Shown piece after piece: positions 3,656-62,984 of a stretch of 64,000 nucleotides of DNA (positions are counted from its first letter, which is position 1; the number at the start of each line of letters is the position of its first letter). Under the pieces are notes generated by a model. It was given only the letters and a program-made list of their open reading frames with translations. It had not been told where the DNA came from and did no database searches. The position numbers were made by a program, and so were the translations under genes. The DNA is taken from positions 24,051 to 88,050 of the forward strand of contig JAFUYA010000049.1 in NCBI GenBank assembly GCA_017477025.1. Reading direction: 5' to 3'. Source of the DNA: Bacteroidales bacterium. GTDB taxonomy: Bacteria; Bacteroidota; Bacteroidia; Bacteroidales; P3.

Positions 3656-3866
3656 TCAGAGTTACTTACTCTTACTTATTTAACAATTAATGTTTTTTGT
3701 TACACCACCGCATTTAACACAATAAACATACAAGGCAAGTTTATAATATCTTTTAATAATAAATTTGTAATGATGTAAATTTTCAAATTATACATACATT
3801 AAATAAAATTTTATTTGTATTTTTGCAAGTGCAATAGTGCAAATAAACGAGCAATAACTATTATTT

Positions 3867-4028
3867 CGTATTCAAAATAAACCTAGGAAATTTATTTTTG
3901 ATAATTGAAATAAAATGTTCAGATAAAACCTGGATTTTTATATCCATTATGATTTTAATGTTTATCACCCTCGGTGTTAAACTTTCTATAATGGATACGG
4001 TATTTCTCCTAGGTTTTACCTGAATACG
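3867..4028. repeat. imperfect inverted repeats flanking a 110-bp segment upstream of the methyltransferase operon
   Basis: IR-L is cgtattcaaaataaacctaggaaat (3867-3891). IR-R is atttctcctaggttttacctgaatacg (4002-4028). The shared blocks are cgtattca and aaacctagga. The enclosed segment begins with a TAttTTTG box (3893-3900) and contains a nested 10-bp IR, tatccattat/ataatggata. Confidence 0.4.
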
Positions 4029-4104
4029 AGTAGAAGAGTTAAACACCTTATTTATTTCTGTATTATCAGTAACGATTGATAGTTTTTGCAAAAATTATCA
4101 ATCT

Positions 4105-5097
4105 ATGTCTGATAATAAAAATTTGAGAAATGCCAACAGAGCAAAGAAAGATGAATTCTACACTCAATTAGAAGATATTGAAAAAGAATTAAGGCATTAT
4201 AAACAACATTTCAAAGGAAAGACTGTTTTGTGTAATTGTGATGACCCACGGGTAAGCAATTTCTTTACCTATTTTTCACATCATTTTGAATCGTTAGGAT
4301 TGAAAAAACTTATAACTTCCTGTTATAAGAACCAAGATATAGATTTGTTTTCGCAAAATTCATCAGATAAAGCCGTATATTTGGAATATACTGGCGACAA
4401 AAACGGAAACAAAATACCCGACAGAGAAGAAATAGAAGTAAAACCTTTGCATGATAACGGAGATTTCCGCTCCAATGAATGCAAAGAACTATTGAAGCAA
4501 GCGGATATAGTAGTTACCAATCCGCCGTTTAGTTTATTCAGAGAGTATTTGCAACAAATCATTGATTTTGATAAGAAGTTTTTAATAATCGGCAATTTGA
4601 ATGCAGTATCTTATAAAGAATGTTTTAAATTAATTAAAGACAATAAAATGTGGTTGGGTGCGAGTATTCACAGCGGTGACAGAAAATTCGGCGTTCCTGA
4701 TGATTATCCATTAAATGCTGCAACCTGCGGAATAGATGATAAAGGACAGAGATTTATAAGAGTTAAGGGCGTCCGTTGGTTTACTAATATGGACTACAAA
4801 GAGCGTCATGAAGACTTACCTTTATATAAGAAATATTCAGAAACAGACTATCCTAAATTTGATTATTACAATGCTATAAACATTGATGCAACGGCGGATA
4901 TACCTTGTGACTATGATGGCTTAATGGGTGTTCCTATTTCATTTCTTGATAGATATAATCCTGAGCAATTTGAAATCGTTGATGGCATAGGACGTTACAG
5001 TATGCTCACAGGACCGACGGAAGAAACAAAGGGTAAATATCTTACAAAGGTAAATGATAAGCCTAAATTTGCGCGAATAATTATTAGAAGAAAGTGA
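4105..5097 (+). CDS. N6-adenine DNA methyltransferase, EcoRI-methylase family
   Basis: DEFYTQ near the N-terminus, then CNCDDPRVSNFF, the catalytic motif IV VVTNPPFSLFREY, KKFLIIGN and GVPISFLDRYNPEQFEI. As I recall the sequence, these are collinear with M.EcoRI. Confidence 0.85.
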   Translation: MSDNKNLRNANRAKKDEFYTQLEDIEKELRHYKQHFKGKTVLCNCDDPRVSNFFTYFSHHFESLGLKKLITSCYKNQDIDLFSQNSSDKAVYLEYTGDKNGNKIPDREEIEVKPLHDNGDFRSNECKELLKQADIVVTNPPFSLFREYLQQIIDFDKKFLIIGNLNAVSYKECFKLIKDNKMWLGASIHSGDRKFGVPDDYPLNAATCGIDDKGQRFIRVKGVRWFTNMDYKERHEDLPLYKKYSETDYPKFDYYNAINIDATADIPCDYDGLMGVPISFLDRYNPEQFEIVDGIGRYSMLTGPTEETKGKYLTKVNDKPKFARIIIRRK

Positions 5098-5103
5098 AAT
5101 AAT

Positions 5104-6210
5104 ATGGAAGTAAAATTGCACGAAATAACCGTAAGACAATTAGTTGAGGGTTATGAAAACAGAGAAGATGAGGGCGTTGTTGGTTTCGGCGGGAAATTAG
5201 ACATACGTCCGCCTTATCAAAGGGAATTTATCTATTCCGCAGACAAACAAAAAGCCGTTATTGACACAATATTCAAGAATTTTCCGCTGAATATAATGTA
5301 TTGGGTCAAAAGAGATGATGGTACATTTGAAGTTATGGACGGGCAACAGCGGACTATGAGTATTTGTGAGTATTATTGTTGCAATTTTTCAATAGAAAAG
5401 GACGGCTATTTGAAAGGTTACGACAACCTTACCGACAAAGAGCAGGAGGATTTTCTCAATTATAAACTTATGGTTTATTTTTGTGAGGGCAATGATTATG
5501 AAAAATTGCAGTGGTTTAAGACAATAAACATTGCAGGCGAGGATTTGTCCGACCAAGAAATGAGAAACGCAGTGTATAACGGCTCATGGGTGAATAATGC
5601 AAAGGTTTGGTTCAGCAAAAAAGTGGCAGGATGTCCAGCATACCAGGTAGGAAGCCCGTATATTGCCTCTTCGGTGAAAATAAACCGCCAAGGGCTTTTG
5701 GAACTTGCGATAAAATGGATAAGCAAGGGCAACATCAATGAATATATGAAACAACATCAACATGACAAAGACGCAACGGAACTTTGGAATTATTACAAAA
5801 GCGTCATTGAGTGGGCGGAAAACCTGTTCGGAAAGCCGAGAAAAGAAATGAAAGGCTTACCTTGGGGAGAGTATTACAATGAATACAAAGACCAAGAGTT
5901 TAATCCTGAGGCTATTCGGCAAAGAGTTGATTTCCTAATGCAAGACGAGGAGATAGAAAACAAAAAAGGTATTTATCTTTATGTACTTGACGGAAAAGAA
6001 AAGCATTTAAATCTGCGTCAATTCCCTGAAAACATCAGAAGAACGGTATATGAAAAACAGGAAGGCAAATGTTTTGTCTGCAAAAAGGAATTTGAGTTTG
6101 AAGAAATGGAGGGCGATCATTGGAAATCGTGGCATAAGGGAGGAAAAACGGAAATAGATAATTGCAGGATGCTTTGTCGTGACTGTAATAGGGAGAAATC
6201 GGGAAAATAA
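5104..6210 (+). CDS. DUF262 (ParB/GmrS-like) domain protein with C-terminal HNH endonuclease finger
   Basis: The N-terminus carries PPYQREFIY and the hallmark VMDGQQRTMSI of DUF262. The C-terminus reads CFVCKK...EGDHWKSWHKGG...NCRMLCRDCNREK (CxxC...DH...N...CxxC, an HNH finger). It starts 6 nt after the methyltransferase stop. Confidence 0.85.
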   Translation: MEVKLHEITVRQLVEGYENREDEGVVGFGGKLDIRPPYQREFIYSADKQKAVIDTIFKNFPLNIMYWVKRDDGTFEVMDGQQRTMSICEYYCCNFSIEKDGYLKGYDNLTDKEQEDFLNYKLMVYFCEGNDYEKLQWFKTINIAGEDLSDQEMRNAVYNGSWVNNAKVWFSKKVAGCPAYQVGSPYIASSVKINRQGLLELAIKWISKGNINEYMKQHQHDKDATELWNYYKSVIEWAENLFGKPRKEMKGLPWGEYYNEYKDQEFNPEAIRQRVDFLMQDEEIENKKGIYLYVLDGKEKHLNLRQFPENIRRTVYEKQEGKCFVCKKEFEFEEMEGDHWKSWHKGGKTEIDNCRMLCRDCNREKSGK

Positions 6211-8730: not shown

Positions 8731-9945
8731 ATGAAAAAAATATTTGTTTTCCGGATAATGATTATTCTTTGTCTGACTGCCATCGGCCAAAGAAATGTCC
8801 TGTTTGTAGGAAACAGCCTGACTTTTTATAATGATATGCCGACAATGTTCGAAAATCTGGCAAACACAAAAGGACAAAATGTAGTAGTTACGCAATACAC
8901 CATAGGCGGAGCAGGTTTGCATGATATGCAAAGCAATGCTGATTTATTAAATTTGTTTAATCAACCGTGGGATTTTGTTATTTTGCAACCGGGAACCAGT
9001 GAATCCGGTGGAATGGGAGTAGGTGTTGATTCTTTAACTGCTATTGTCAAAACAATGCGTAGAAGAATTTGGAATGTGAGTCCTTGTGCTAAAATTTGTT
9101 TATTTGAAATTTCCAACGGAATCTATTTTCAGGATAATACTCCTATGTGGGATTATTATTTCACAACTCAACCGCTTATAAGAAATGTAATCCATAAAGT
9201 TGCAGAGGCTGCAAAGTTGCCGTATGCACCGGTAGGAGAATGTTTTGTAGCATATTATCAGGGTAGAAATGATTTACAATTACATAATGACTTTAATGAT
9301 GTTCACCCTAACACAAATGGTTCTTATTTGACCACACTTGTCATGTATAATACATTGTTTGAAGAGAGTAATATATGTTCCTATTACGGTAATACGGAAG
9401 AAGGATTGGCTAAAATTTTACAACATATTAGTGATAGTGTTGTATTGAATCATAAGGACTTATGGTTGTTAGATGAATTCAAAACAAATGTAGATTTTTC
9501 TTATGCAATTCATAACGATGTGGTTCGTTTCGTTAATTTATCTACTAATTATGAAACAATTGAATGGAATATAAATGATGAATTCACATCTTACGACAAT
9601 GAATTTGATTATCAGTTTAGTAGTGCAGGCGAAAAATTTGCTGCCGTCAATATTGATAATCACGGATGTAAATACAATTTAACCAAAGAATTTGAAATAA
9701 CAAAAAACAATAGTATAGATGAAAAAGAATTCTGTAACGATATTATTTTTACCAATAATAGTATAGTAGTTAATACTACCGGCAGAAAAGAAATATATTT
9801 TAGAGTTTCAAATATGTTAGGTCAAATTGTTAAACAAGGAAAAACAAACAATAATGTAATTGATATTTGTGATATTGCAAGAGATACTTATATTATTACA
9901 TTTATAGTGGATAATAAACAGTATTGCTATAGATTTATAAAGTGA
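8731..9945 (+). CDS. secreted SGNH-like hydrolase-fold protein with probable T9SS C-terminal sorting domain
   Basis: Signal peptide, then VLFVGNSLTFYNDMP (block I-like GNS) and DVHPN (block V-like). The C-terminal ~70 aa (IYFRVSNMLGQIV...TYIITFIV...) resembles a Por secretion tail. Confidence 0.55.
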   Translation: MKKIFVFRIMIILCLTAIGQRNVLFVGNSLTFYNDMPTMFENLANTKGQNVVVTQYTIGGAGLHDMQSNADLLNLFNQPWDFVILQPGTSESGGMGVGVDSLTAIVKTMRRRIWNVSPCAKICLFEISNGIYFQDNTPMWDYYFTTQPLIRNVIHKVAEAAKLPYAPVGECFVAYYQGRNDLQLHNDFNDVHPNTNGSYLTTLVMYNTLFEESNICSYYGNTEEGLAKILQHISDSVVLNHKDLWLLDEFKTNVDFSYAIHNDVVRFVNLSTNYETIEWNINDEFTSYDNEFDYQFSSAGEKFAAVNIDNHGCKYNLTKEFEITKNNSIDEKEFCNDIIFTNNSIVVNTTGRKEIYFRVSNMLGQIVKQGKTNNNVIDICDIARDTYIITFIVDNKQYCYRFIK

Positions 9946-11882: not shown

Positions 11883-12521
11883 TTATTCGTTTGTTTTCTT
11901 TTTAATCGGAATTCTAAGTACCGTTTTTAATTTTTCAGCTGAACACTTACGCGGATCAGATAAATAAATCTCGTGATGTCGCCTGTATTCCGATAAATCC
12001 GTTTCATAATTATTTTCTTCAATGAATTTATTCATCAAATCTATTGTTTCAGGCTCTTTATCATAACTGCCGATGTGCATACATTGCACGCAAATGCCTT
12101 CATTCAAAGTAAAAAACTCCGCTTTAGAGAAATCTTTTTTCTTTTTTTGCGTTGCAGTCTTAACCGCCCAATCAAAATCATCCTTTTTTATGAAGTAAGG
12201 CAGTCGTATCATGGAAATAAAATTAAACTTTTCTTTGTGATTGTAATCCAATTCCGTTTCATCTTGCCACCATAAACCTTCTAACGGCGGAACAACAAAG
12301 TCAAAATAACCGTCAATACGCTTATCCGTCTTTTTTGACATCTTAATCGTATAAGCAATACCGTATAAAAGTTCAATAGACTGCTTATATTGCGAATTTT
12401 CATCGTTAGGATTGCCTTTTCCTTTTACGGCAACATAGTTTATTGTCGGAATTTCAATAATTGTCGGTTTATTCTTCGGTAAATAAAACTCTTTGTATTC
12501 TTTTTTATAATCAAAAGCCAT
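11883..12521 (-). CDS. GyrI-like small-molecule-binding domain protein
   Basis: 212 aa. MAFDYKKEYKEFYLPKNKP...VAVKGKGNPN...GLWW...HEIYLSDPRK is the pattern I associate with GyrI-like/SOUL effector-binding proteins. Confidence 0.55.
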   Translation of the reverse strand: MAFDYKKEYKEFYLPKNKPTIIEIPTINYVAVKGKGNPNDENSQYKQSIELLYGIAYTIKMSKKTDKRIDGYFDFVVPPLEGLWWQDETELDYNHKEKFNFISMIRLPYFIKKDDFDWAVKTATQKKKKDFSKAEFFTLNEGICVQCMHIGSYDKEPETIDLMNKFIEENNYETDLSEYRRHHEIYLSDPRKCSAEKLKTVLRIPIKKKTNE

Positions 12522-12743
12522 AAAATATATGTTTTATACAATGTATTCAATACATAATTCCGTATGCAAAAGACTGCAAAGGTATAAAAATCTTGTTTAA
12601 TTGATATTGATTGTTTGCAAAAATTTGATTGGAAATATGGAAAGTATTTTACAAGGTCCTGTAATTGAAAAATTATTGCTTGTTATTAGGGAAAAATATC
12701 TATCTTTGTGAAATAAATTTGTAAAACAAAAGGGAACAATTCA

Positions 12744-18395: not shown

Positions 18396-18701
18396 ATTGC
18401 ATAGTCATTTTAAATGAAACGAAAGTCTTCCTCTTAAGAATGCAAAATTAACGTTAATTCTTGAGTTTGCAAAACATTTTTACACTAAAACAACGGCAAC
18501 CCTTACAGGATAAAAAATATTTACATGATTTCCATTGTCCGAATTTTTGTGAAAAAAATGTTTCTAAAAGCAATCATTTTGTCTGTTTTCTTGATAAGTT
18601 TCCTTTGAAAATTTACTTGTTTTTACATATTCGGGACAAAAATATACACGCTTCTGACACGGTGTAAATCAATATGTTAAAAAACACTATGATTTTTGAA
18701 A

Positions 18702-18758
18702 TTTTTTTAATGATTTCGGCAGAAATCTCACACTTTTTGACGGAAATCATTAAGAAAA
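18702..18758. repeat. hairpin fragment related to the 38.4/58.3 kb intergenic element
   Basis: ttaatgatttc (18707-18717) pairs with gaaatcattaa (18743-18753). The loop carries tctcacac and gacgg, words shared with the long copies. Confidence 0.45.
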
Positions 18759-18938
18759 ATTTTTTGAATAAAGGTATTCTTTTTTTGTACTCAAAAAATG
18801 GTTTTTTATTGTGTGTTACAAGTAAGTTTTTTACACGAAAAAATAAGACCTTTATTATTCTTGTTTTCTTTTCCGTTCGGGATAATAAATATTTTTGTAT
18901 TTTTGCACCGTCAAAATCAAAAAACATAAAAAGACATT

Positions 18939-22794: not shown

Positions 22795-23059
22795 GATATA
22801 GGACATCCCCGTTTAATATAAAACATCGTCCGAACCATGTCCTTAATAAAGGACGATTTTTCTGAAAAGCCTTTTTATTTTTTTACAAAAATTGTTGAAA
22901 AAATGTAACAATCGGAGAAAAACAGCGTAAAAGATACAGAAAACCAAGTGTAGAATACAAAAAAATGTAATAAAACAGGCGGTTTTTATTGCAAAAATGT
23001 ATAAAAATTTAGTATAAATCAAACTATATATTATATTGAATTATAGGTAATTATACATA

Positions 23060-23069
23060 GGGGGGGGGG
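23060..23069 (+). repeat. G10 homopolymer tract
   Basis: Read directly (catag gggggggggg a). It is the only G/C run longer than 5 that I saw in the window. Confidence 0.9.
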
Positions 23070-23123
23070 ATTTTCAACATTAAAAAGTTAATAAAAAATT
23101 TGGTTGGTATGACTTTTATGTTG

Positions 23124-23206: not shown

Positions 23207-25507
23207 ATGAGAGTTGGAAACCCTATGAAGGGTGTTTTTAGAAGAAAAACACTTTTAGCGGTGTTTATTGCCATATTCGCAATCTCTGCATTGCCGGGTA
23301 ATTTGATGGCACAATTCAGTGGCGGAAGTGGTACATCCGCAGATCCTTATTTAATTTCCAAAGCACAGGATTTAGTTACATTAGCAACTGATGTCAATGG
23401 CGGTACGACGTATAGCGGAAAATATTTTAAGGTTACGCAGGACATAGATATGTCTTCAGTAAGTAACTTTACTCCTATCGGCTATATTTATGGAACAAAT
23501 GATAATGGAACTATTTCGACAACAGGTGCTCGTGCATTTCAAGGAACGTTTGATGGGGATAATAAGACAATAAGTAATCTAACCATTAATCAGAAGTTAG
23601 AAAGGAGTAATAGCAACTCCGGTAACGGAGTAAGATGCGGTACAGGATTGTTCGGTTATGTAAATAACGGAACAATAAAGAATGTTGTCATCTCACACGC
23701 TAATATTTCTGCTGAATTACAGACTCTGACTGGATATTGGAATTCAGCAACAAAGGCGAGTGGAGTTGGAGCATTAGTAGGTATGTTATGGTCCGGTTCT
23801 GTTGAGAATTGTTCCGTATCAAATTCTTCTATTTCTGCAACAGCAACGACAACATCTGGTGGTACAACCGGATACATTGATTGTGTAGGCGGATTGGTAG
23901 GTGGTATTGGCGAAACATCTTCCGGTCCGGGAAACTATAATGCAACGGTAAGCGGTTGTTCTAGTTATAACAATACTGTAGTAGGAGGTACCTACGTAGG
24001 AGGTCTCTCGGGAGAAGGTGATGGCTCAAATATAACTGATTTTGATTTTGCAGGAAATACAGTTGTAGCAACCAATAACAATGGACAATCCGGAGCCGTA
24101 ACAGGTAGAGACCCATCCTTCCCTGAAGGAGAAGCAAATGCTGTTACTTTGTATGTTGGAAAATGGAACTTTATCGGATCAATAGGTAGCACTTTCGATA
24201 TATTGAATAGCAACAACGGAGGTAAAGCTCCTAACGGCAAGCAATATCCTAACGATATGGCGGCAATAGGATTCAATTATTTTACAACAGAAGCAGGTGG
24301 TACAGCAAACCAATGGTCAAGTGTTTGGTATCATTCATGGAATACTATGGTTCCTGGACAAGGTTACTTCGTTTGGCCTTTTGATAAGAGCAGAATAGAC
24401 GTTGAAGGAAATGATAGTAAAACGGAAGGCTTTACGTTGGACAATACTACCACATCCATACTTCCTACTGCATTAAAGAAAGGTGGTACGGTCGGAATTG
24501 CAGATGCTCTTCCAGGTAAAGATGAATATACAGCAGCAACTAATTATGCAACAACAGAACAAGCTGCAAACGGAAGATGGTTTGCTTTGAGCAATCCTTT
24601 TGCTGTAAACTTGAGTGTTGCAGGTATTGTTGGTTACCAAGGTGTAGAGGCTACAGTTACAGGTATTCAAGGTAACGTGGTTTATACTTATGATGCTCAG
24701 AATTCTCAGTGGAAGACGGTTGAACCGGGGGCTACGGGAATTATTCTTCCTGGACAAGGCTTTATGGTTGCAGCAAGTAAAGAGGGAAGTTCTGCAACTA
24801 TTGGTGGTTTGTTGAGATATGTAAGAGCTAAATCTGTAAGAATAGAAGATCTTGAGGAAAATCAACCTATGGGTATTGTTTTCGGAACTAAGACAAACAA
24901 AGATGAACATTTTTCTTATCTTCGTTTTGATGACAACGCTTCTAACAGTTTTGATGTGATGGATTGCTATTCTTTGTTTTCTGATAAGGAAGATTACGTT
25001 GAATCTTATTTTGATGTAAATGGTAATAATGTATTGATCAACTATACTAAAACACTTCCTTATGAGGTTCCTGTTAATTTCCATGCAGTAAAAGAAAGTG
25101 ACGTAGAGTTTTTTGCAAAGAATATTCCTGAAGATTTGCAAGTTTCAATTATTGATTTGCAAGATAGCGGCAAAGAGACTGTTTTAAACGATACTCCATT
25201 TATTTTCCATGCCGATCAGGGAGAAAATGCAGACAGATACAAGATAAAGGTTGCTTCTAAAAAAGCATCTTTGGAGAATTTGAAAGAAACGGATGTAAAA
25301 ATCTACAATTTAAATAAGGAATTGAGCGTGTATGGTGAGGATTTGCAGTTCGTTGAAGTTGTGAATGCATTAGGTCAGACGGTTTTATCTCAAAAAATCA
25401 GTGGAAATACATTCAATTGTACGTTATCAAATGTAAATAGCGGAGCCTACATTGTCAATGTAAAGACTGCAAACGGAAATAAAGTTGAAAAAGTTATTGT
25501 TAAATAA
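23207..25507 (+). CDS. GLUG-motif repeat surface protein with T9SS C-terminal sorting domain
   Basis: Signal peptide (the alternative start is Met7 at 23225). GSGTSADPYLI...FQGTFDGDNKTISNL is followed by reiterated GLFG/ALVG/GLVG/GLSG ...N[CV] units. The C-terminus DVKIYNL...VVNALGQTV...GAYIVNVKT...KVIVK is a Por_Secre_tail-like CTD. Confidence 0.75.
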   Translation: MRVGNPMKGVFRRKTLLAVFIAIFAISALPGNLMAQFSGGSGTSADPYLISKAQDLVTLATDVNGGTTYSGKYFKVTQDIDMSSVSNFTPIGYIYGTNDNGTISTTGARAFQGTFDGDNKTISNLTINQKLERSNSNSGNGVRCGTGLFGYVNNGTIKNVVISHANISAELQTLTGYWNSATKASGVGALVGMLWSGSVENCSVSNSSISATATTTSGGTTGYIDCVGGLVGGIGETSSGPGNYNATVSGCSSYNNTVVGGTYVGGLSGEGDGSNITDFDFAGNTVVATNNNGQSGAVTGRDPSFPEGEANAVTLYVGKWNFIGSIGSTFDILNSNNGGKAPNGKQYPNDMAAIGFNYFTTEAGGTANQWSSVWYHSWNTMVPGQGYFVWPFDKSRIDVEGNDSKTEGFTLDNTTTSILPTALKKGGTVGIADALPGKDEYTAATNYATTEQAANGRWFALSNPFAVNLSVAGIVGYQGVEATVTGIQGNVVYTYDAQNSQWKTVEPGATGIILPGQGFMVAASKEGSSATIGGLLRYVRAKSVRIEDLEENQPMGIVFGTKTNKDEHFSYLRFDDNASNSFDVMDCYSLFSDKEDYVESYFDVNGNNVLINYTKTLPYEVPVNFHAVKESDVEFFAKNIPEDLQVSIIDLQDSGKETVLNDTPFIFHADQGENADRYKIKVASKKASLENLKETDVKIYNLNKELSVYGEDLQFVEVVNALGQTVLSQKISGNTFNCTLSNVNSGAYIVNVKTANGNKVEKVIVK

Positions 25508-37671: not shown

Positions 37672-38235
37672 ATGAAATTATTCGGGAAGATTATATTAAA
37701 ACTCGGCGGTTTTCATCTTCGCAGCGATTTCAGTGAGGAGATGAAAAACGCCGTTATTATTGAAGCTCCGCATACAAGTATGTGGGATTTTGTTTGGGGA
37801 AGGGCAGGTTTATGGGCCTTGGGCATAAAATGTCATTTTCTTATTAAAAAAGAGTTGTTCTTTTTCCCGTTAGGGATTATTCTTAAAATGTTAGGAGCCG
37901 TTCCCGTCAATAGAGGTAAGGACGGTAAAGGATTCTACGATCATATCATCAGACAACTGAAAGATAACGACAATTTTTCACTGATTATAACTCCCGAAGG
38001 GACAAGAAAACGTACGGATAATTGGAAGAAAGGTTTCTATTACATTGCTCGAAAGGCGGAAAAACCGATATTTATGGCATGGATTGATTATAAATACAAG
38101 ACCTGCGGAGTCAGTAAGCAGGATAAGATTGTTCCGAGCGGAGATTATGACAAAGATTTCTTGATTGTCAAAGAGTTTTACAAAAAAGTTCATGCCAAAC
38201 ACCCTGAAAAGTTCAATCTTACTTCACAACAATAG
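37672..38235 (+). CDS. 1-acyl-sn-glycerol-3-phosphate acyltransferase family (PlsC-like) protein
   Basis: The APHTSMWD (HX4D) and ITPEGTR motifs are both present. Confidence 0.75.
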   Translation: MKLFGKIILKLGGFHLRSDFSEEMKNAVIIEAPHTSMWDFVWGRAGLWALGIKCHFLIKKELFFFPLGIILKMLGAVPVNRGKDGKGFYDHIIRQLKDNDNFSLIITPEGTRKRTDNWKKGFYYIARKAEKPIFMAWIDYKYKTCGVSKQDKIVPSGDYDKDFLIVKEFYKKVHAKHPEKFNLTSQQ

Positions 38236-38369
38236 TATTTCTTGTAAATTAAAATTGACAAACGGCGGTAAATTCTCTCAAATGAATCTGTCGCCGTTCT
38301 TTTTTGTTGCATAAACAGAGTAAAAGATTCATTTGAGGACGGATTTCTTACTGAAAAGTTTGGAAAACA

Positions 38370-38575
38370 AGGACAAAACTTCTGAAATCATTAAGAATAT
38401 TTTTGAAATTATTAAAAAGAAATTCGTCAGGACGGTTCAAAATTATATTTCAGACGGTTCAAAATATGGTTTTTGACGGTCTGAAATCTTTTTTGAACCG
38501 TCCTGAACAAAAGTTTTCTTAATGATTTCAAAACTCTTTTCACTAATTTCAAAACCGGTTTCATTGATTTTAATT
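38370..38575. repeat. composite palindromic intergenic element, copy A
   Basis: A 15-bp perfect IR: caggacggttcaaaa (38428-38442) with ttttgaaccgtcctg (38491-38505). A 14-bp perfect outer IR: gaaatcattaagaa (38384-38397) with ttcttaatgatttc (38516-38529). GACGGT/ACCGTC cores sit at 38431, 38453, 38475 and 38497, a 22-bp period. It is collinear with copy B at 58.3 kb. Confidence 0.75.
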
Positions 38576-38677
38576 GACATTTCAGAAAAGCGACACGGTT
38601 TTTCTCACATCGGGAGTGAAAGGTTGCCGATGAATAAAAAAAACCGATTTTCATTTGTGCATATATATGAAATTTTG

Positions 38678-38685
38678 TAAATTTG
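38678..38685 (+). promoter_or_regulatory. -7 box TAaaTTTG for purL
   Basis: taaatttg lies 32 nt upstream of ATG 38717. Confidence 0.45.
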
Positions 38686-38716: not shown

Positions 38717-40954
38717 ATGATAAAGGCTGAAGAAGTTACGGTTGAAACCGCTAAAAAATTGGGGTTATTGCCTGAGGAATTTGAAAAGATTAAAGAATAT
38801 TTGGGCGGAAGAACGCCGAATTTTACCGAGTTGAGTATTTATTCCGTTATGTGGAGCGAACATGCTTCATATAAGAATAGTATCAAATGGATAAAAAAAC
38901 TTCCTAAGGAAGGAAGACAAATGCTTGTTGCACCGGGTGAGGAGAATGCCGGAATGGTTGATGTAGGTGACGGAAGAGCATGTGTATTCAAGATAGAAAG
39001 TCATAATCATCCTTGTGCCGTTGAGCCTTTTCAGGGAGCGGCAACGGGAGTAGGCGGAATAAACCGTGATATTTTCACAATGGGTGCAAGACCTATCGCA
39101 CAGATGAACGCACTTCGTTTCGGAAAATTGTCTTCAAAACACGCTAAACATTTATTTAAAGGTTCTGTAGAGGGTATTTCCCATTATGGCAACTCTTTCG
39201 GGGTGCCTGTTTTGGGAGGAGAGGTTTTCTTTGACGAATGTTTTGAAAACAACCCGTTGGTTAATGCCATGAGTGTGGGTATAATGAAGAAAGAAGATCT
39301 GATAAAGGCTTTGGCAAAAGGAGCAGGTAACCCTGTTTATATTGTAGGTTCTTCCACAGGTAAGGACGGAATACACGGGGCAACGTTTGCAAGTGCCGAT
39401 GTTACTGAAAACTCTGCCGACGATATACCTTCCATTCAAGTAGGAGACCCGTTCCAAGAGAAATTGTTGATGGAAGCATCCTTGGAATTAGGCCGTAGCG
39501 GAGCAATAGTAGGTATGCAGGATATGGGTGCAGCAGGTATTATCTGTTCTACAAGTGAAATGAGTGAAAAGGGCGGAAGCGGAATGAAAATCAATTTGGA
39601 TGAAGTTCCTTTACGTCAGCAGAATATAGAAGCGTGGGAGATTCTTCTTTCCGAGAGTCAGGAAAGAATGCTCGTTGTTGTAAAGAAAGGACAGGAAGAA
39701 GTTGTTGAGAAGATTTTTGATAAATGGGATTTGAATTGTAAGAAGATCGGTGAAGTTATTGACGAGGATATGCTTTATTTCTATTGGAAAGGCGAATTGG
39801 TTGCCAAAGTACCTGCTTCAACACTTGTTCTTGGCGGGGGAGCTCCTCAATATGACAGAGAATATACCGAACCTGCTTACTACCAAAAGAGAAAAGAATT
39901 CAAAATTGACAGCATAAAAGAGCCTGATATTAAACAGGCAAAAGAAATTGCAAAGGCTATGGTTCATAATCCTAATCTTGCAAGCAAACGTTGGGTTTAT
40001 GAGCAGTACGATACTATGGTAGGTACGCGTAATATGACAACTAACCGTCCTGCTGATTCGGGAGTTGCTAATATCAAAGGATGCAGCAACGGTATTGCCA
40101 TGACTTGCGATTGTAATTCGCGTTATGTGTATTCTGATCCGTTTATCGGAGCCGAAATGGCGGTAGCAGAGGCGGCAAGAAACATTGTTTGTACGGGTGG
40201 AGAGCCGTTGGCAGTAACTAATTGCTTGAATTTCGGCAATCCTTACAAACCTGAGACCTATTGGCAGTTTGTTAATGCGGTTAAAGGTATGGGTGAGGCT
40301 TGTAAAAAGTTTTCTACGCCTGTTACCGGCGGTAATGTTTCTTTCTATAATCAGGCATCAATCAACGGAGTTGTGGAGGCCGTTATGCCGTCGCCTGTTA
40401 TCGGTATGGTGGGAACGGTAAATAAGGACGATCAAACGGGATTGGACTTCAAACAAGAGGGACAAAGCATCTACTTGTTGGGAGAAGTTGTCAATGACAT
40501 TAATTCTTCGGAGTATCTGTATAACTATTGCGGAGTCAAATTGAGTGATGTTCCTTATTTTGATATGGACAAAGAATTTGATTTGCAGCAGGCTGTCAAA
40601 AAAATGATAAAAACCAAGACTTTGCAATCCGCACATGATGTTTCTGACGGAGGATTGTTTATGAATTTGTTGGAAAGTGCTATGGTAAGAGACTTAGGTT
40701 TTGAGATAGAAACAGATAAAAATGTTCGTTTGGATGCATTTTTGTTCGGAGAGAGTCAATCTCGTATAGTTGTAACAATAAACGAGAATAAGAAAGCCGA
40801 ATTTGAAAGCATTTTGGCCGAATACAACGTTCCTTGCCGTAAAATAGGTAAGACGACAAGTAAAAATATTGCCATTGACGGAGAAGATTTCGGTTGTATC
40901 TGTGAATACAAACGGATATTTAATAACGTCATCGGCGAAGAAATGGAGAAATAA
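38717..40954 (+). CDS. purL: phosphoribosylformylglycinamidine synthase subunit PurL
   Basis: 745 aa. WSEHASYKNS, ESHNHPCAVEPFQGAATGVGG, the duplicated AIRS-like domains and DVSDGGL are present. Confidence 0.95.
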   Translation: MIKAEEVTVETAKKLGLLPEEFEKIKEYLGGRTPNFTELSIYSVMWSEHASYKNSIKWIKKLPKEGRQMLVAPGEENAGMVDVGDGRACVFKIESHNHPCAVEPFQGAATGVGGINRDIFTMGARPIAQMNALRFGKLSSKHAKHLFKGSVEGISHYGNSFGVPVLGGEVFFDECFENNPLVNAMSVGIMKKEDLIKALAKGAGNPVYIVGSSTGKDGIHGATFASADVTENSADDIPSIQVGDPFQEKLLMEASLELGRSGAIVGMQDMGAAGIICSTSEMSEKGGSGMKINLDEVPLRQQNIEAWEILLSESQERMLVVVKKGQEEVVEKIFDKWDLNCKKIGEVIDEDMLYFYWKGELVAKVPASTLVLGGGAPQYDREYTEPAYYQKRKEFKIDSIKEPDIKQAKEIAKAMVHNPNLASKRWVYEQYDTMVGTRNMTTNRPADSGVANIKGCSNGIAMTCDCNSRYVYSDPFIGAEMAVAEAARNIVCTGGEPLAVTNCLNFGNPYKPETYWQFVNAVKGMGEACKKFSTPVTGGNVSFYNQASINGVVEAVMPSPVIGMVGTVNKDDQTGLDFKQEGQSIYLLGEVVNDINSSEYLYNYCGVKLSDVPYFDMDKEFDLQQAVKKMIKTKTLQSAHDVSDGGLFMNLLESAMVRDLGFEIETDKNVRLDAFLFGESQSRIVVTINENKKAEFESILAEYNVPCRKIGKTTSKNIAIDGEDFGCICEYKRIFNNVIGEEMEK

Positions 40955-40980
40955 GGATTCAACAAATAGTTTGTCCTTAT

Positions 40981-41044
40981 AAATTGCCGGAAAGTGGGGA
41001 GAATCTTCACAAAAGTGATGATTCTCCCCACTTTCCGGCAATTT
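40981..41044. repeat. 64-nt near-perfect palindrome (25-bp perfect arms)
   Basis: aaattgccggaaagtggggagaatc (40981-41005) pairs with gattctccccactttccggcaattt (41020-41044). An inner tcac/gtga pairing extends the stem. No adjoining T run. Confidence 0.8.
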
Positions 41045-41101
41045 ACAGTAGCAGTTATCTGAGGAATATAGTATATATACACACATAAAAAGGAGGTTAG
41101 T

Positions 41102-56616: not shown

Positions 56617-57534
56617 TTACTTCTTCTCTGCTATTCTCAGTTTGGCACTTCTTGCACGCGAATTGTTACATATCTCTTCTTCGGAAGGTGTTATCGGTTT
56701 TCTTGTTATCGGTTTGTAAGGAGTATTTACGTTTCCGTAGAAATCTTTCTCAATTATGCCTTTTGTATTTCCCGAACGTATCAATTCTTTGACCTTTTTA
56801 TCTTCCAAAGAATGATAAGATATGACTGCCAACCGCCCTTGAGACTTAAGCATTCCCTCACATTGGTTAAGCATGGAATCAAGAGAGGAAAGTTCGTCAT
56901 TTACTTCAATTCGCAATGCCTGAAATATCTTGGCAAAAAACTTATTTTCAATATTAGGCTTGGTAAGCGACTTCAATATTCCGCAAAGTTCGGTTGTTGT
57001 GGCAATATATTGCTCTTCACGTTTTTTGCATATCATTTTTGCCGTTTGTTTTGCATTAGGAATTTCGGCGTATGAGAAAAACAGTCCCGCAAGTTGTTCT
57101 TCGGTGTAAGAGTTGATAATGTCCGCAGCCGTAAATGCGGTATCAACATTCATTCTTAAATCGAGCGGAGCATCGCTGCGGAAAGAAAATCCGCGTTCGG
57201 AAGTATCAATCTGGTGAGAAGATATTCCAAGGTCGGCAAGTATGCCGTCAACTTGCGTAACTCTGTACAGTCTGAGTTGTTTTGTCATGTTGGAGTAGTC
57301 ATCGTTGATAAGGCAAAACCTTTCATCCTCAATGGTATTTTTAACAGAGTCTTTGTCCTTGTCGAAAGCGTAGAGTTGTCCGTTATTGCTCAATTTGTTG
57401 AGAATCGCACGGGAATGACCGCCTCCTCCGAAGGTTAAATCCACGTAAATACCGTCAGGATTAATGTTTAATCCTTCAAGGCATTCGTTAAGTAATACCG
57501 GAACGTGATATGTATTAGACGGACTTGTCGGCAT
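56617..57534 (-). CDS. rsmH: 16S rRNA (cytosine1402-N4)-methyltransferase
   Basis: HVPVLLNE, DLTFGGGGHS, ADLGISSHQ, SYHSLEDK and RARSAKLR. Confidence 0.95.
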   Translation of the reverse strand: MPTSPSNTYHVPVLLNECLEGLNINPDGIYVDLTFGGGGHSRAILNKLSNNGQLYAFDKDKDSVKNTIEDERFCLINDDYSNMTKQLRLYRVTQVDGILADLGISSHQIDTSERGFSFRSDAPLDLRMNVDTAFTAADIINSYTEEQLAGLFFSYAEIPNAKQTAKMICKKREEQYIATTTELCGILKSLTKPNIENKFFAKIFQALRIEVNDELSSLDSMLNQCEGMLKSQGRLAVISYHSLEDKKVKELIRSGNTKGIIEKDFYGNVNTPYKPITRKPITPSEEEICNNSRARSAKLRIAEKK

Positions 57535-57979
57535 TGGATGTTTTCAGCAAATTTTTCGCAACTTGTTTATAATCAAAGTTATCTTCCGAAGTTTTTTTGT
57601 AAGTATCCGCATCCCATATCTCAAGAAAATTGCCGGAACCTATTATTACGATTTCTTTTGTTATGTTAGTTGATTTTCTCATCATTTCCGGAATCAACAA
57701 ACGGTCAAAAGAATCCATTTCCAACATATTTCCCTCGATAAAACGGCGGTAAAGTTTCTTGGAATCAGGATCATAGAGATTCAGATTCTTGTTTAGAAAC
57801 GATACTTCTTTTTGAAAACTTTCGTAAGTAAAGACTTCCAAACAATCGTTGTAGATACTTTTGCGGATGAAGTAGCGATTGTCGGAAGCAATATCCAACT
57901 GCTTCTTTATCGCTGCAGGCATCTTGAATCTGCCTTGAGCATCCGTTTTACAATATTCTACACCTACCAACAAAGACAT
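57515..57979 (-). CDS. mraZ: transcriptional regulator MraZ
   Basis: Two DxxxR-type SpoVT/AbrB halves (DAQGRFKMP; DSFDRLLIP). First gene of the dcw cluster. It overlaps rsmH by 20 nt. Confidence 0.9.
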   Translation of the reverse strand: MSLLVGVEYCKTDAQGRFKMPAAIKKQLDIASDNRYFIRKSIYNDCLEVFTYESFQKEVSFLNKNLNLYDPDSKKLYRRFIEGNMLEMDSFDRLLIPEMMRKSTNITKEIVIIGSGNFLEIWDADTYKKTSEDNFDYKQVAKNLLKTSNADKSV

Positions 57980-58022: not shown

Positions 58023-58227
58023 CTAAAAAAAATCCAAATATTACCAAATTTTGACTTTTTTTACCTATTTATCCCAGTTTTACGTGAATTTTCTGTAAAG
58101 GTTACACTTTTTTGAGAATTATTTTTTTAAGATTTTCAATAGGTTAGGGACAAAAAATTTCAAAAAAACGCAGGGTTTAAAAGTTTTCAACAATCTGAAA
58201 GATGGAATTACACGGAATATTTTCGGG

Positions 58228-58430
58228 AAGTGTGATAATTTTCATGAAAAGTGTGATAAAACTTTTGAAATCTCTGACATTATTTTTGTCAGGACGGTTC
58301 AAAATCAACTTTCAGACCGTCCAAAATATAGTTTTAGACCGTCTGAAAAATTTTTTGAACCGTCTGAAACAAAAATATTCTTTATGATTACAAAAATATT
58401 CTCACACTTTACAAAACTAATATCATTGTT
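58228..58430. repeat. composite palindromic intergenic element, copy B
   Basis: GAC(C/G)GT/ACCGTC cores sit at 58293, 58315, 58337 and 58359 (22-bp period), each offset from its copy A counterpart by exactly 19862 bp. IR gacggttcaaaa/ttttgaaccgtc. Outer aagtgtga (58228, 58249) faces tcacactt (58402). Confidence 0.75.
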
Positions 58431-58555
58431 TTCAAATAAGTTATCAATAAAAGGGTAAATATTCATTTGACAGTTTTCGGATTTTATGCTGAAAAATGAG
58501 TTATTTTTATGAAAGATAGGATAGTTTTTACGAAATTTGCAAAAAATTTACGGAT

Positions 58556-59593
58556 ATGGGAAGTATAATAAATAAATCTGTTAAAATCATATCGGTATTA
58601 GTTGCTTTGATGTGTTTGTTTTCGTGTTCAAATACGGAGAAAAGAGTGGTAACGGACGGTTTTGTGCAGGGAACTTATTATCATATTGTTTTCTATGCAC
58701 AGGATACCTCAGGCATCAAGCAGGACATAAAGAAAATATTTGCCGATATTGATTCGTCATTATCTTTATGGGTGGAAAATTCAACGGTTAGCAGAGTGAA
58801 TCGTAATGAGGACGTGCTGTTGGATGACATATTCATTGATAATTTCAATGCTGCGATAAAATTTTCGCAATTAACCGACGGAGCATTTGATATCACGGTC
58901 GGGGAATTGGTCAGAAAGCACGGATTTGCAAACAAAAACAGAGAAAAATTAACAGACGGGCAGATTGATTCACTGTTGCAGTTCGTAGGATATGAGAATA
59001 TTTCTGTAAAAGACGGAAAACTGATAAAAAAATTTCCACAAACAACATTGGATTTCAATGCTATAGCACAAGGATATACTTCCGATAAGATTGCATCGTA
59101 TTTTCGCAGTCGCAACATCCGTTCTTTTATAGTGGATGTAGGAGGAGAAGTGATGTGCGGAGACAGAAAACCCGACAATTCCAAATGGTCGGTAGGAATA
59201 GAACAGCCCTCGGATGAGGATTCTCGGGATAATGAGAGACAAATGCAGCGGGAGAGAAAGACTCAACAGATTATCTATCTTGAAAATGAGTCGGTTGTAA
59301 CAAGCGGTAACTATAGAAAGTTTTATATTGAGGACGGTGTGAAATATTCGCACACTATTGATCCGAAAACAGGCAGATCGGTAACGCATTCTTTGCTTTC
59401 AGCATCAGTTGTAGCCGAAGATGCCGTAACGGCAGACGCTTTAGCAACGGCGTTTATGGTTATGGGATTGGAACGAACGCAAAAGTTTTTGCAAACACAC
59501 GATCAATATGCTGCATATCTGATTTTCTCCGACAAAGACGGCAATATGCAGACTTGGCAAAGCAGAAATTTCGATAAATATACAAAGAAATAA
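58556..59593 (+). CDS. apbE: FAD:protein FMN transferase (ApbE family lipoprotein)
   Basis: Lipobox LFSC, then GTYYHIV, FDITVG, LDFNAIAQGY, VDVGGEV, YSHTIDPKTG and ADALATA. Confidence 0.85.
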   Translation: MGSIINKSVKIISVLVALMCLFSCSNTEKRVVTDGFVQGTYYHIVFYAQDTSGIKQDIKKIFADIDSSLSLWVENSTVSRVNRNEDVLLDDIFIDNFNAAIKFSQLTDGAFDITVGELVRKHGFANKNREKLTDGQIDSLLQFVGYENISVKDGKLIKKFPQTTLDFNAIAQGYTSDKIASYFRSRNIRSFIVDVGGEVMCGDRKPDNSKWSVGIEQPSDEDSRDNERQMQRERKTQQIIYLENESVVTSGNYRKFYIEDGVKYSHTIDPKTGRSVTHSLLSASVVAEDAVTADALATAFMVMGLERTQKFLQTHDQYAAYLIFSDKDGNMQTWQSRNFDKYTKK

Positions 59594-62659: not shown

Positions 62660-62732
62660 TCTATATATTTTGCGTAATAAGAGTTTTGTATGTATAGTAT
62701 TTTTTTTACATTGTGTATAATATTTTTTTACA

Positions 62733-62984
62733 TTATGAGGAAAAATCTACCGTATAATGAAATATCGGGGAGGAATCTTTCTTTTTGAAGACTTCGTTGG
62801 AAATATCTTTGAAGAAATCATAATTCAGAGCTTTACAGATTCTAATCAAAATATCCGTATCAATGCTTTCCCGTTTGAAGATGTTATATACATTGGCTCT
62901 TTCGCAGTGAATAGCCTCGGCAAGTTGTATGACTGATACACCCTGTCTTATCATAACTTCTCTGATATGTTTTCCGATATGCAT
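62733..62984 (-). CDS. XRE-family helix-turn-helix protein
   Basis: 83 aa. IGKHIREVMIRQGVSVIQLAEAIHCERANVYNIF is a Cro/C1-type HTH. Confidence 0.75.
   Translation of the reverse strand: MHIGKHIREVMIRQGVSVIQLAEAIHCERANVYNIFKRESIDTDILIRICKALNYDFFKDISNEVFKKKDSSPIFHYTVDFSS

Follow-up and report, generated by a model that had tools for sequence, protein, structure and literature searches.

What kind of sequence occupies the long spacer upstream of purL in a rumen Bacteroidales genome, and what could keep its shape? In the 64-kb stretch of DNA analysed here (the window; 36% G+C), whose source is an uncultured rumen Bacteroidales bacterium, an imperfect palindrome of ~220 bp (copy A) is flanked by an acyltransferase gene (37672-38235) and purL (38717-40954), and another of ~220 bp (copy B) lies in the divergent spacer between mraZ (57515-57979, minus strand) and apbE (58556-59593, plus strand). 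Contigs from a series of ruminant gut metagenomes encode the same purL protein, and among named relatives the closest are MAGs labelled "Bacteroidales bacterium". An earlier note, made from the sequence alone, took the two palindromes as copies of one dispersed element with phased boxes and offered a MITE, an array of operators or a structured RNA as explanations.

Results

A nested palindrome present twice in the window

Copies A and B had been described as collinear and roughly four-fifths identical, without indels in the core, and this proved correct: a MAFFT alignment has 82% column identity over 283 columns with a gap-free core, and blastn gives 79.5% identity over 151 ungapped bases (E=6e-33). 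The nested inverted repeats of copy A are also present. The perfect outer repeat of 14 bp is as first reported (GAAATCATTAAGAA at 38384-38397, inverted at 38516-38529), while the perfect inner one is 16 nt long instead of 15 (TCAGGACGGTTCAAAA/TTTTGAACCGTCCTGA, 38427-38442 and 38491-38506). The coordinates of the element and its relatives are collected in Table 1.

Table 1. Features of the four-box element, its surroundings and sister arrays. Positions refer to the window unless a related locus (L013 and the like) is named.
Feature	Location	Strand	Basis or remark
Copy A, whole element (four boxes with an arm on either side)	38357..38579		nhmmer extent of A/B homology, alignment, neighbour Pfam
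Copy A, left arm, roughly three units of 21 bp, among them GAAATCATTAAGAA and TTTTTGAAATTATTAAAAAG	38357..38425	+	arm units related between copies
Copy A, box 1, dyad centre 38434	38426..38442		
Copy A, box 2, dyad centre 38456	38448..38464		
Copy A, box 3, dyad centre 38478	38470..38486		
Copy A, box 4, dyad centre 38499, 21 bp from box 3	38491..38507		
Copy A, right arm, 21-bp tandem units mirroring left arm	38508..38579	-	TRF, inverted repeats
Copy B, whole element	58219..58441		alignment, nhmmer; orthologous copy in L016 also between mraZ and apbE
Copy B, left-arm 21-bp direct repeat (AAGTGTGATAA...)	58228..58269	+	repeat search
Copy B, core, four boxes, dyad centres 58296, 58318, 58340, 58361	58288..58369		
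Short relative, arm units only: GAAATCATTAAGAA inverted pair around 25 bp	18690..18770		weak by nhmmer
Context, outside element: terminator-like hairpin and T-run of upstream gene	38261..38305	+	repeat search, sequence
Context: TAAATTTG, likely Bacteroidetes-type -7 box of purL	38678..38685	+	alignment with relatives
Sister family TAGTGTTAAACACTA	L014, two loci		
Sister family TAGTTTATATAAACTA	L014		perfect 25-28-bp terminal repeat
Sister family AAAAAAACAGTTTTTTT	L023 and L024		
Sister family with TTAACGTTAA core	L013		
Sister family GAAACGATGTCGTTTC	L027		
Array loci in L013, L014, L021-L024, L027 and L028	e.g. L014 4100-4280, L023 21190-21390, L013 13555-13780, L021 9355-9824		
TAATTTACTGACGTCGCAGAA unit-number comparison	L028 9585-9695 vs L029 9564-9695 and L031 2491-2622		

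The terminator-like hairpin at 38261-38305 lies ~55 bp before the left arm of copy A. On the other side of the element, TAAATTTG before purL is kept in four relatives, and the sequence upstream of it is not alignable; going by the TAnnTTTG consensus of Bacteroidetes promoters, we take it as the likely -7 box of purL. A 31-nt hairpin (40980-41045; 97% complementary) directly after the purL stop codon is probably a terminator and is unrelated to the element.

Four dyad boxes in fixed register

The GACGGT/ACCGTC hexamers start at 38431, 38453, 38475 and 38497 in copy A and at 58293, 58315, 58337 and 58359 in copy B. Counted from these starts, the four boxes are exactly 22 bp apart, as the earlier note stated; counted between dyad centres, the last interval is 21 bp (22, 22 and 21 bp in both copies). 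Five of the eight copies known to us have dyad-centre intervals of 22, 22 and 22 bp, and of the 24 centre-to-centre intervals in all eight, 21 measure 22 bp and the other three 21 bp.

Together, the 32 boxes of these copies give a mirror-symmetric consensus of 17 bp, TTTYRRAC-S-GTYYRAAA, in which T-7, C-1, G+1, T+2 and A+7 are invariant, and T-6, A-2 and A+6 are found in 30 of the 32 boxes. The central base is G in 13 boxes, C in 18 and T in one, which bears out the observation that the central C/G flips. In pairwise comparisons of all copies, ten box positions are 92% identical, whereas identity drops to 64% for the Y/R positions, 45% for the central base and 48% for the spacers; copy B and its ortholog in L016 agree at 36/40 box positions vs 8/24 in the spacers. 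In these alignments, the spacing is conserved, whereas the spacer sequence is free.

When the degenerate box was searched for in the window with at most one mismatch, five matches were obtained, all within A or B, as compared to 0.72 +/- 0.85 in shuffled windows, with 0/100 shuffles reaching five. Neither the window nor the ~400 kb of related loci has a box outside a four-box array, and none stands singly. Individual boxes also carry traits of their own: box 2 begins with TTTCAG in seven of eight copies, and box 3 ends with CTGAAA in five of eight. Because such position-specific traits are kept across copies, the four-box unit is inherited and copied whole, not rebuilt locally. With its 17-bp dyad sites, fixed helical phasing and variable spacers, the core has the anatomy of an operator or iteron array.

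Arms and other repeats

TRF detected a period of 21 bp in the right arm of copy A (2.2-2.3 repeats, 38508-38570). The arm units are related between copies (local scores of 20-39 vs 9.8 in shuffles), and they resemble decayed boxes minus the ACSGT centre, e.g., TTTTGTAATATCAGAAA beside TTTTGAACCGTCTGAAA. One left-arm unit of copy B is absent in the orthologous L016 copy, where the alignment has an exact 21-column gap; comparisons of this kind show that arms grow and shrink by whole units.

A short relative had been reported at 18.7 kb, and the exact 14-mer GAAATCATTAAGAA does form an inverted pair there (18704-18717 and 18743-18756). The likeness is partial, however: the arm pair stands in the opposite relative order, the four boxes are missing, and the nhmmer E-value is about 1.

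Several further repeats were recorded. Inverted-repeat arms of 23 nt (3866-4029; 83% complementary, 118 bp apart), whose sequence is unrelated to the four-box element, lie in the 514-bp spacer before the ORF at 4105. A run of about 10-11 G (23058-23070), in the 533-bp spacer upstream of a 766-aa ORF (23207-25507), could vary in length by slippage. A 22-bp direct repeat present twice (TGTATAATATTTTTTTTACATTG; 62691-62734) abuts the 3' end of an 83-aa Cro/C1-type HTH ORF (62733-62984, minus strand). Direct repeats of 10 bp occur by the mraZ start, both in L016 (AAATTTCCAA x3.6, 5661-5697) and in the window (CCAAAT twice with 10-bp spacing, about 58033-58050); by analogy with the known 10-bp-phased MraZ sites, we presume that these may form a MraZ operator.

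Copies in related genomes

A strict three-box pattern, which the copies in L013 and L016 would escape, matched three loci among species-representative genomes, all in rumen Bacteroidales MAGs (two RGIG5007 contigs and one RGIG9171). Three more copies were found in loci obtained via purL and mraZ homologs: L013 (PurL 93% identical) has two, one of them upstream of purL with a different upstream neighbor, and L016 (PurL 87% identical) has one in the mraZ/apbE spacer, orthologous to copy B. Beyond A and B, six copies are thus known, from four or more genomes of rumen Bacteroidales relatives. The earlier note's description of a dispersed element is supported by this total of eight copies, which come from at least five genomes and include non-orthologous sites. 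Copies were found between SulP and peptidase genes (L003), between a T9SS protein gene and the next gene (L002), between a NusG-like gene and capsule genes (L013a), and between convergent methyltransferase genes (L001).

Taken together, the alignments and gene contexts show that the element has descended vertically at some loci, and that elsewhere entire copies have been placed into unrelated spacers between genes. With more than two copies and unduplicated flanking genes, A and B are not explained by a local segmental duplication, nor was a full-length IS found of which they could be the ends. One claim had to be given up, namely that copies lie upstream of plus-strand genes in the same orientation: copy B also faces a second, divergent gene (mraZ), the element itself is a palindrome, and the L001 copy is in a convergent spacer. 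Whole-element identities are 74-85% for all pairs, in gapped AT-rich alignments, and carry no information on whether copies cluster by genome or by locus. No DNA-binding gene is consistently next to a copy, the neighbors being housekeeping genes.

The sensitive-model search covered only about 400 kb of related DNA, and seven other relatives, each represented by 13-22 kb of sequence, showed no copy. Plasmid and phage BLAST searches gave no match, nor did four scans of viral contigs, of which two used this family and two used sister families. A metagenome scan with the middle box pair returned eight loci, all of them unrelated intrinsic terminators of the AAAGACCGTCTAAAA...TTTTAGACGGTCTTT type.

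A clade-wide class of phased arrays

We searched 276 kb of the clade with TRF (score of 50 or more) and found 63 arrays, of which 47 have periods of 20-23 bp, three of 42 bp and three of 32-33 bp; no array of any of these periods was found in 49 kb of unrelated control DNA. The clade arrays are nearly all intergenic, at about one per 6 kb, and many are composite palindromes. Many sister arrays also share one plan, with arms of 21-bp units around three to four dyad boxes at 21-23 bp, built from unrelated sequences. Judged by this common plan, the four-box element belongs as one family to a class of minisatellite modules with helical phasing (21-23 bp) that extends across the clade. That the periods gather at multiples of one helical turn (21-22, 32-33, 42) suggests that the phasing is constrained.

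The same spacer holds different array families by species, both upstream of purL and upstream of mraZ. Within one species, the number of TAATTTACTGACGTCGCAGAA units upstream of mraZ differs between samples (5.3 vs 6.3), as does the length of the arm upstream of purL (L024 vs L025 9432-9540).

In L024, mirror-image arrays stand on both sides of purL (9581-9827 and 12476-12743), and the neighbors of purL are different in every relative examined, which together suggests repeat-mediated inversion or relocation of purL. Three tandem genes for HU-HIG (PF18291) paralogs, with large composite 21-22-bp arrays between them, were seen in L013 (13132-14730) and L027 (12604-14480); these paralogs are possible candidates for array-binding proteins. 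A single TAGTGTTAAACACTA box within a called pantothenate-kinase gene (L014 14468-14482) is the only array-type box seen in a coding region.

Discussion

Comparison with known systems

The closest described relative is BrickBuilt of Porphyromonas gingivalis, a minisatellite-bearing intergenic MITE with ~23-nt units that vary in number (Klein et al. 2015, PMC4596501). BrickBuilt has about 19 copies per genome, which are strictly intergenic and often just after a terminator, and is built of direct tandem repeats between a leader and a tail, with IS5-type terminal repeats (GAGACCTTTGCA) (PMC4596501). The present element resembles it in its Bacteroidales host, intergenic location, tandem units with some dyad symmetry, expansion and contraction by whole units, and low copy number. 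It differs in being mirror-symmetric, in its 21-22-bp units and in its invariable core of four boxes, whose dyad consensus is strongly conserved; the two are not similar in sequence, and neither the direct-repeat plan of leader and tail nor IS5-type terminal repeats are present. Matches to GAGACCTTTGCA with at most two mismatches numbered six vs 4.2 expected, none of them at the elements.

The BIME, REP and REPIN elements of proteobacteria are likewise dispersed intergenic mosaics of short palindromic units in alternating orientation, with nested palindromes, and BIME/REP elements bind the host proteins IHF and gyrase. REPs are GC-rich hairpins with an 8-9-bp stem, a 4-5-nt loop and a terminal GTAG or CGTC tag, and they occur in tens to thousands of copies linked to RAYT transposases (PMC3733652). 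The present boxes, in contrast, are AT-rich dyads with CGTC in the center instead of the tail, and the copy number of the element appears low. The Y/R positions of one and the same box do not pair, which leaves a single box with no stable hairpin; TTTCAG and TCAAAA do not form Watson-Crick pairs, and the loop would be 1 nt, so the box does not qualify as a REP unit.

In lambda-like operators, 22-bp iterons and ParR centromeres, three to seven sites of about 17-22 bp are spaced at about two turns, and in such phage and plasmid arrays dimers or monomers bind cooperatively on one DNA face and give rise to a higher-order nucleoprotein complex. By analogy, the core is probably most like these arrays in its mode of action. 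However, they adjoin the gene of their own binding protein (repressor, Rep or ParR) on a phage or plasmid, whereas the present copies are chromosomal, multi-copy, beside housekeeping genes, and absent from phage, plasmid and viral collections.

Other candidates were considered and rejected. The sequences of parS, matS, dif, the Fur, CRP, ArgR, MetJ and B. subtilis PurR boxes, and Tn7/Mu-type ends do not match. Bacteroidetes -33/-7 promoter pairs need about 26-28 bp from TTTG to TTTG, not 21-22, and TAnnTTTG stands beside box 1 in only three of the eight copies.

A proposed protein-binding module and its alternatives

With moderate confidence, we lean towards a dispersed module that works at the DNA level, whose four phased dyad boxes would be bound cooperatively by a dimeric protein. 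The core consists of four 17-bp dyad sites, each with two GTYYRAAA half-sites around a free central base, and every site would be occupied by two subunits, as a dimer, of a single sequence-specific protein. Owing to the strict 22-bp register, the four dimers would stand side by side on nearly the same helix face, which would favor cooperative assembly, and the arms would probably be weaker extensions of the same protein complex. Half-site centers about 9-10 bp apart would suit a dimer of the helix-turn-helix type, and 22 bp is close to two turns. The lack of Rfam hits, net covariation, a conserved ORF, consistent terminal repeats, target-site duplications and phage or plasmid matches fits such a DNA-level array and speaks against a gene, an RNA or an ordinary IS end. 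Against a binding-site module, it must be said that dozens of box families would need many cognate proteins, and that plain binding sites would not have to be arranged, core and arms together, as a palindrome, so that this model explains the overall symmetry only partly. For the array class, a sequence-independent process may be the alternative.

The earlier note had preferred a dyad-symmetric protein site to an RNA stem, and the symmetric logo of the 32 boxes and their free, non-covarying center are on its side. A long-hairpin sRNA or a cis-acting mRNA element could be imagined from the fold of all copies into a long hairpin, far better than shuffles (z -6.1 to -7.7), and from the non-coding nature of the region, where no conserved small ORF exists, the open stretches differ in frame and strand between copies, and the 45-aa ORF called in L012 is spurious. 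Yet any DNA palindrome gives such folds, and the pairing is not maintained: the RNAalifold covariation term is unfavorable (+1.36) with many pairs broken, the central base is complementary in just 7/16 partner-box pairs, and the changed box 3 of L013a and L013b has no compensating change in box 2. No Rfam family matched the window or five related loci at the gathering score, permissive thresholds gave only sub-threshold, generic miRNA-hairpin noise, and there is no consistent promoter or terminator, the element lying in every orientation relative to genes. We therefore regard the structured-RNA option as very improbable. Mobility deserves more weight, although we hold it as a minor possibility: a transposase or recombinase encoded elsewhere would recognize the boxes or arm units and move the module as a MITE-like non-autonomous element, which does not exclude a protein-binding module. 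The element is short, non-coding, palindromic and intergenic; non-orthologous copies occur in pairs (on two RGIG5007 contigs, in L013 and in the window); the sister element at L014 4100-4280 has a perfect 25-28-bp terminal inverted repeat; and BrickBuilt is a Bacteroidales precedent for a minisatellite inside a MITE (PMC4596501). The form put forward in the earlier note, with subterminal transposase iterons, is not supported, because the center is best conserved and the ends least, the reverse of a MITE, and because no consistent terminal repeat, target-site duplication or clean empty site was found at A, B or the other copies, nor a parent IS in the window or the fetched loci. There is no terminal motif common to all copies, whose arms resemble one another only weakly. 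Direct repeats are lacking at the flanks of B and the other copies, and the sole target-site-duplication candidate at A (CTGAAAAG/CAGAAAAG) looks like a further degenerate arm unit. The copies are old and diverged (74-91% identity) with no near-identical pair, no transposase gene is present in the 64-kb window or the fetched loci, and the IS5-type terminal repeat of BrickBuilt is not above chance. The search for filled and empty sites met identical same-species contigs, relatives without the element upstream of purL or mraZ whose surrounding DNA is unalignable or holds a different array, an L013/L027 homology limited to ~110 bp before purL, short of the element, and a four-way alignment of purL upstream regions with the promoter alone in common.

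Control of the adjacent genes (purL, apbE/mraZ and others) by a regulator bound to an operator array is a reading for which we see little chance. It draws on the location of seven of the eight copies 120-355 bp upstream of at least one gene start, and on the recurrence of purL-upstream copies in two species and of mraZ/apbE copies in two species. The proposal of operators for a global regulator agrees with the box anatomy, but the boxes are never single or double elsewhere in the window or in ~400 kb of related loci, the neighboring genes are functionally unrelated, and close relatives hold other array families, or none, at the same spacers. Because the distance to the conserved promoter varies widely (about 120 to 355 bp) and the L001 copy lies in a convergent spacer, a simple operator role for neighboring genes is unlikely. 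A neutral origin is somewhat less doubtful, though still unlikely in our judgment: slippage minisatellites in AT-rich spacers would have been made palindromic by template switching and would have no specific function. The clade is full of 21-23-bp arrays with unrelated units, unit number varies between samples, and the spacers upstream of purL and mraZ contain different families across species, as a neutral by-product would have it. On the other hand, the same box sequence and four-box layout recur at different loci in at least five genomes, where local homogenization would be unable to keep separate loci alike; identity is 92% at box positions vs 48% in spacers; and periods at helical-repeat multiples point to a phasing constraint, not a mutational accident.

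Implications for rumen Bacteroidales

A wider version of the protein-binding reading, which we offer tentatively, is an undescribed chromosomal system with dozens of phased dyad-box families, each read by its own member of a rapidly diversifying DNA-binding family, for which the lineage-expanded HU-HIG paralogs beside some of the arrays are one candidate. Nucleoprotein structures of this kind would fill most long spacers and mark rearrangement sites, and their sequence would turn over quickly while their geometry would not.

Most tandem repeats of these genomes belong to the wider array class, which is found at spacers where the gene order of relatives differs, so it may help to explain spacer length, rearrangement hot spots and breaks in MAG assemblies. 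If the arrays were no more than neutral minisatellites, they would be of interest only as an oddity in the makeup of the genome. Should proteins land on the boxes, however, these uncultured rumen Bacteroidales would carry a layer of chromosome organization or regulation with a clear sequence signature, in which the phasing is strictly two turns, the dyad boxes are under selection and the arms gain or lose whole units. The arrays are concrete DNA baits for binding proteins, including for the question of whether the HU-HIG expansion of Bacteroidetes recognizes specific DNA.
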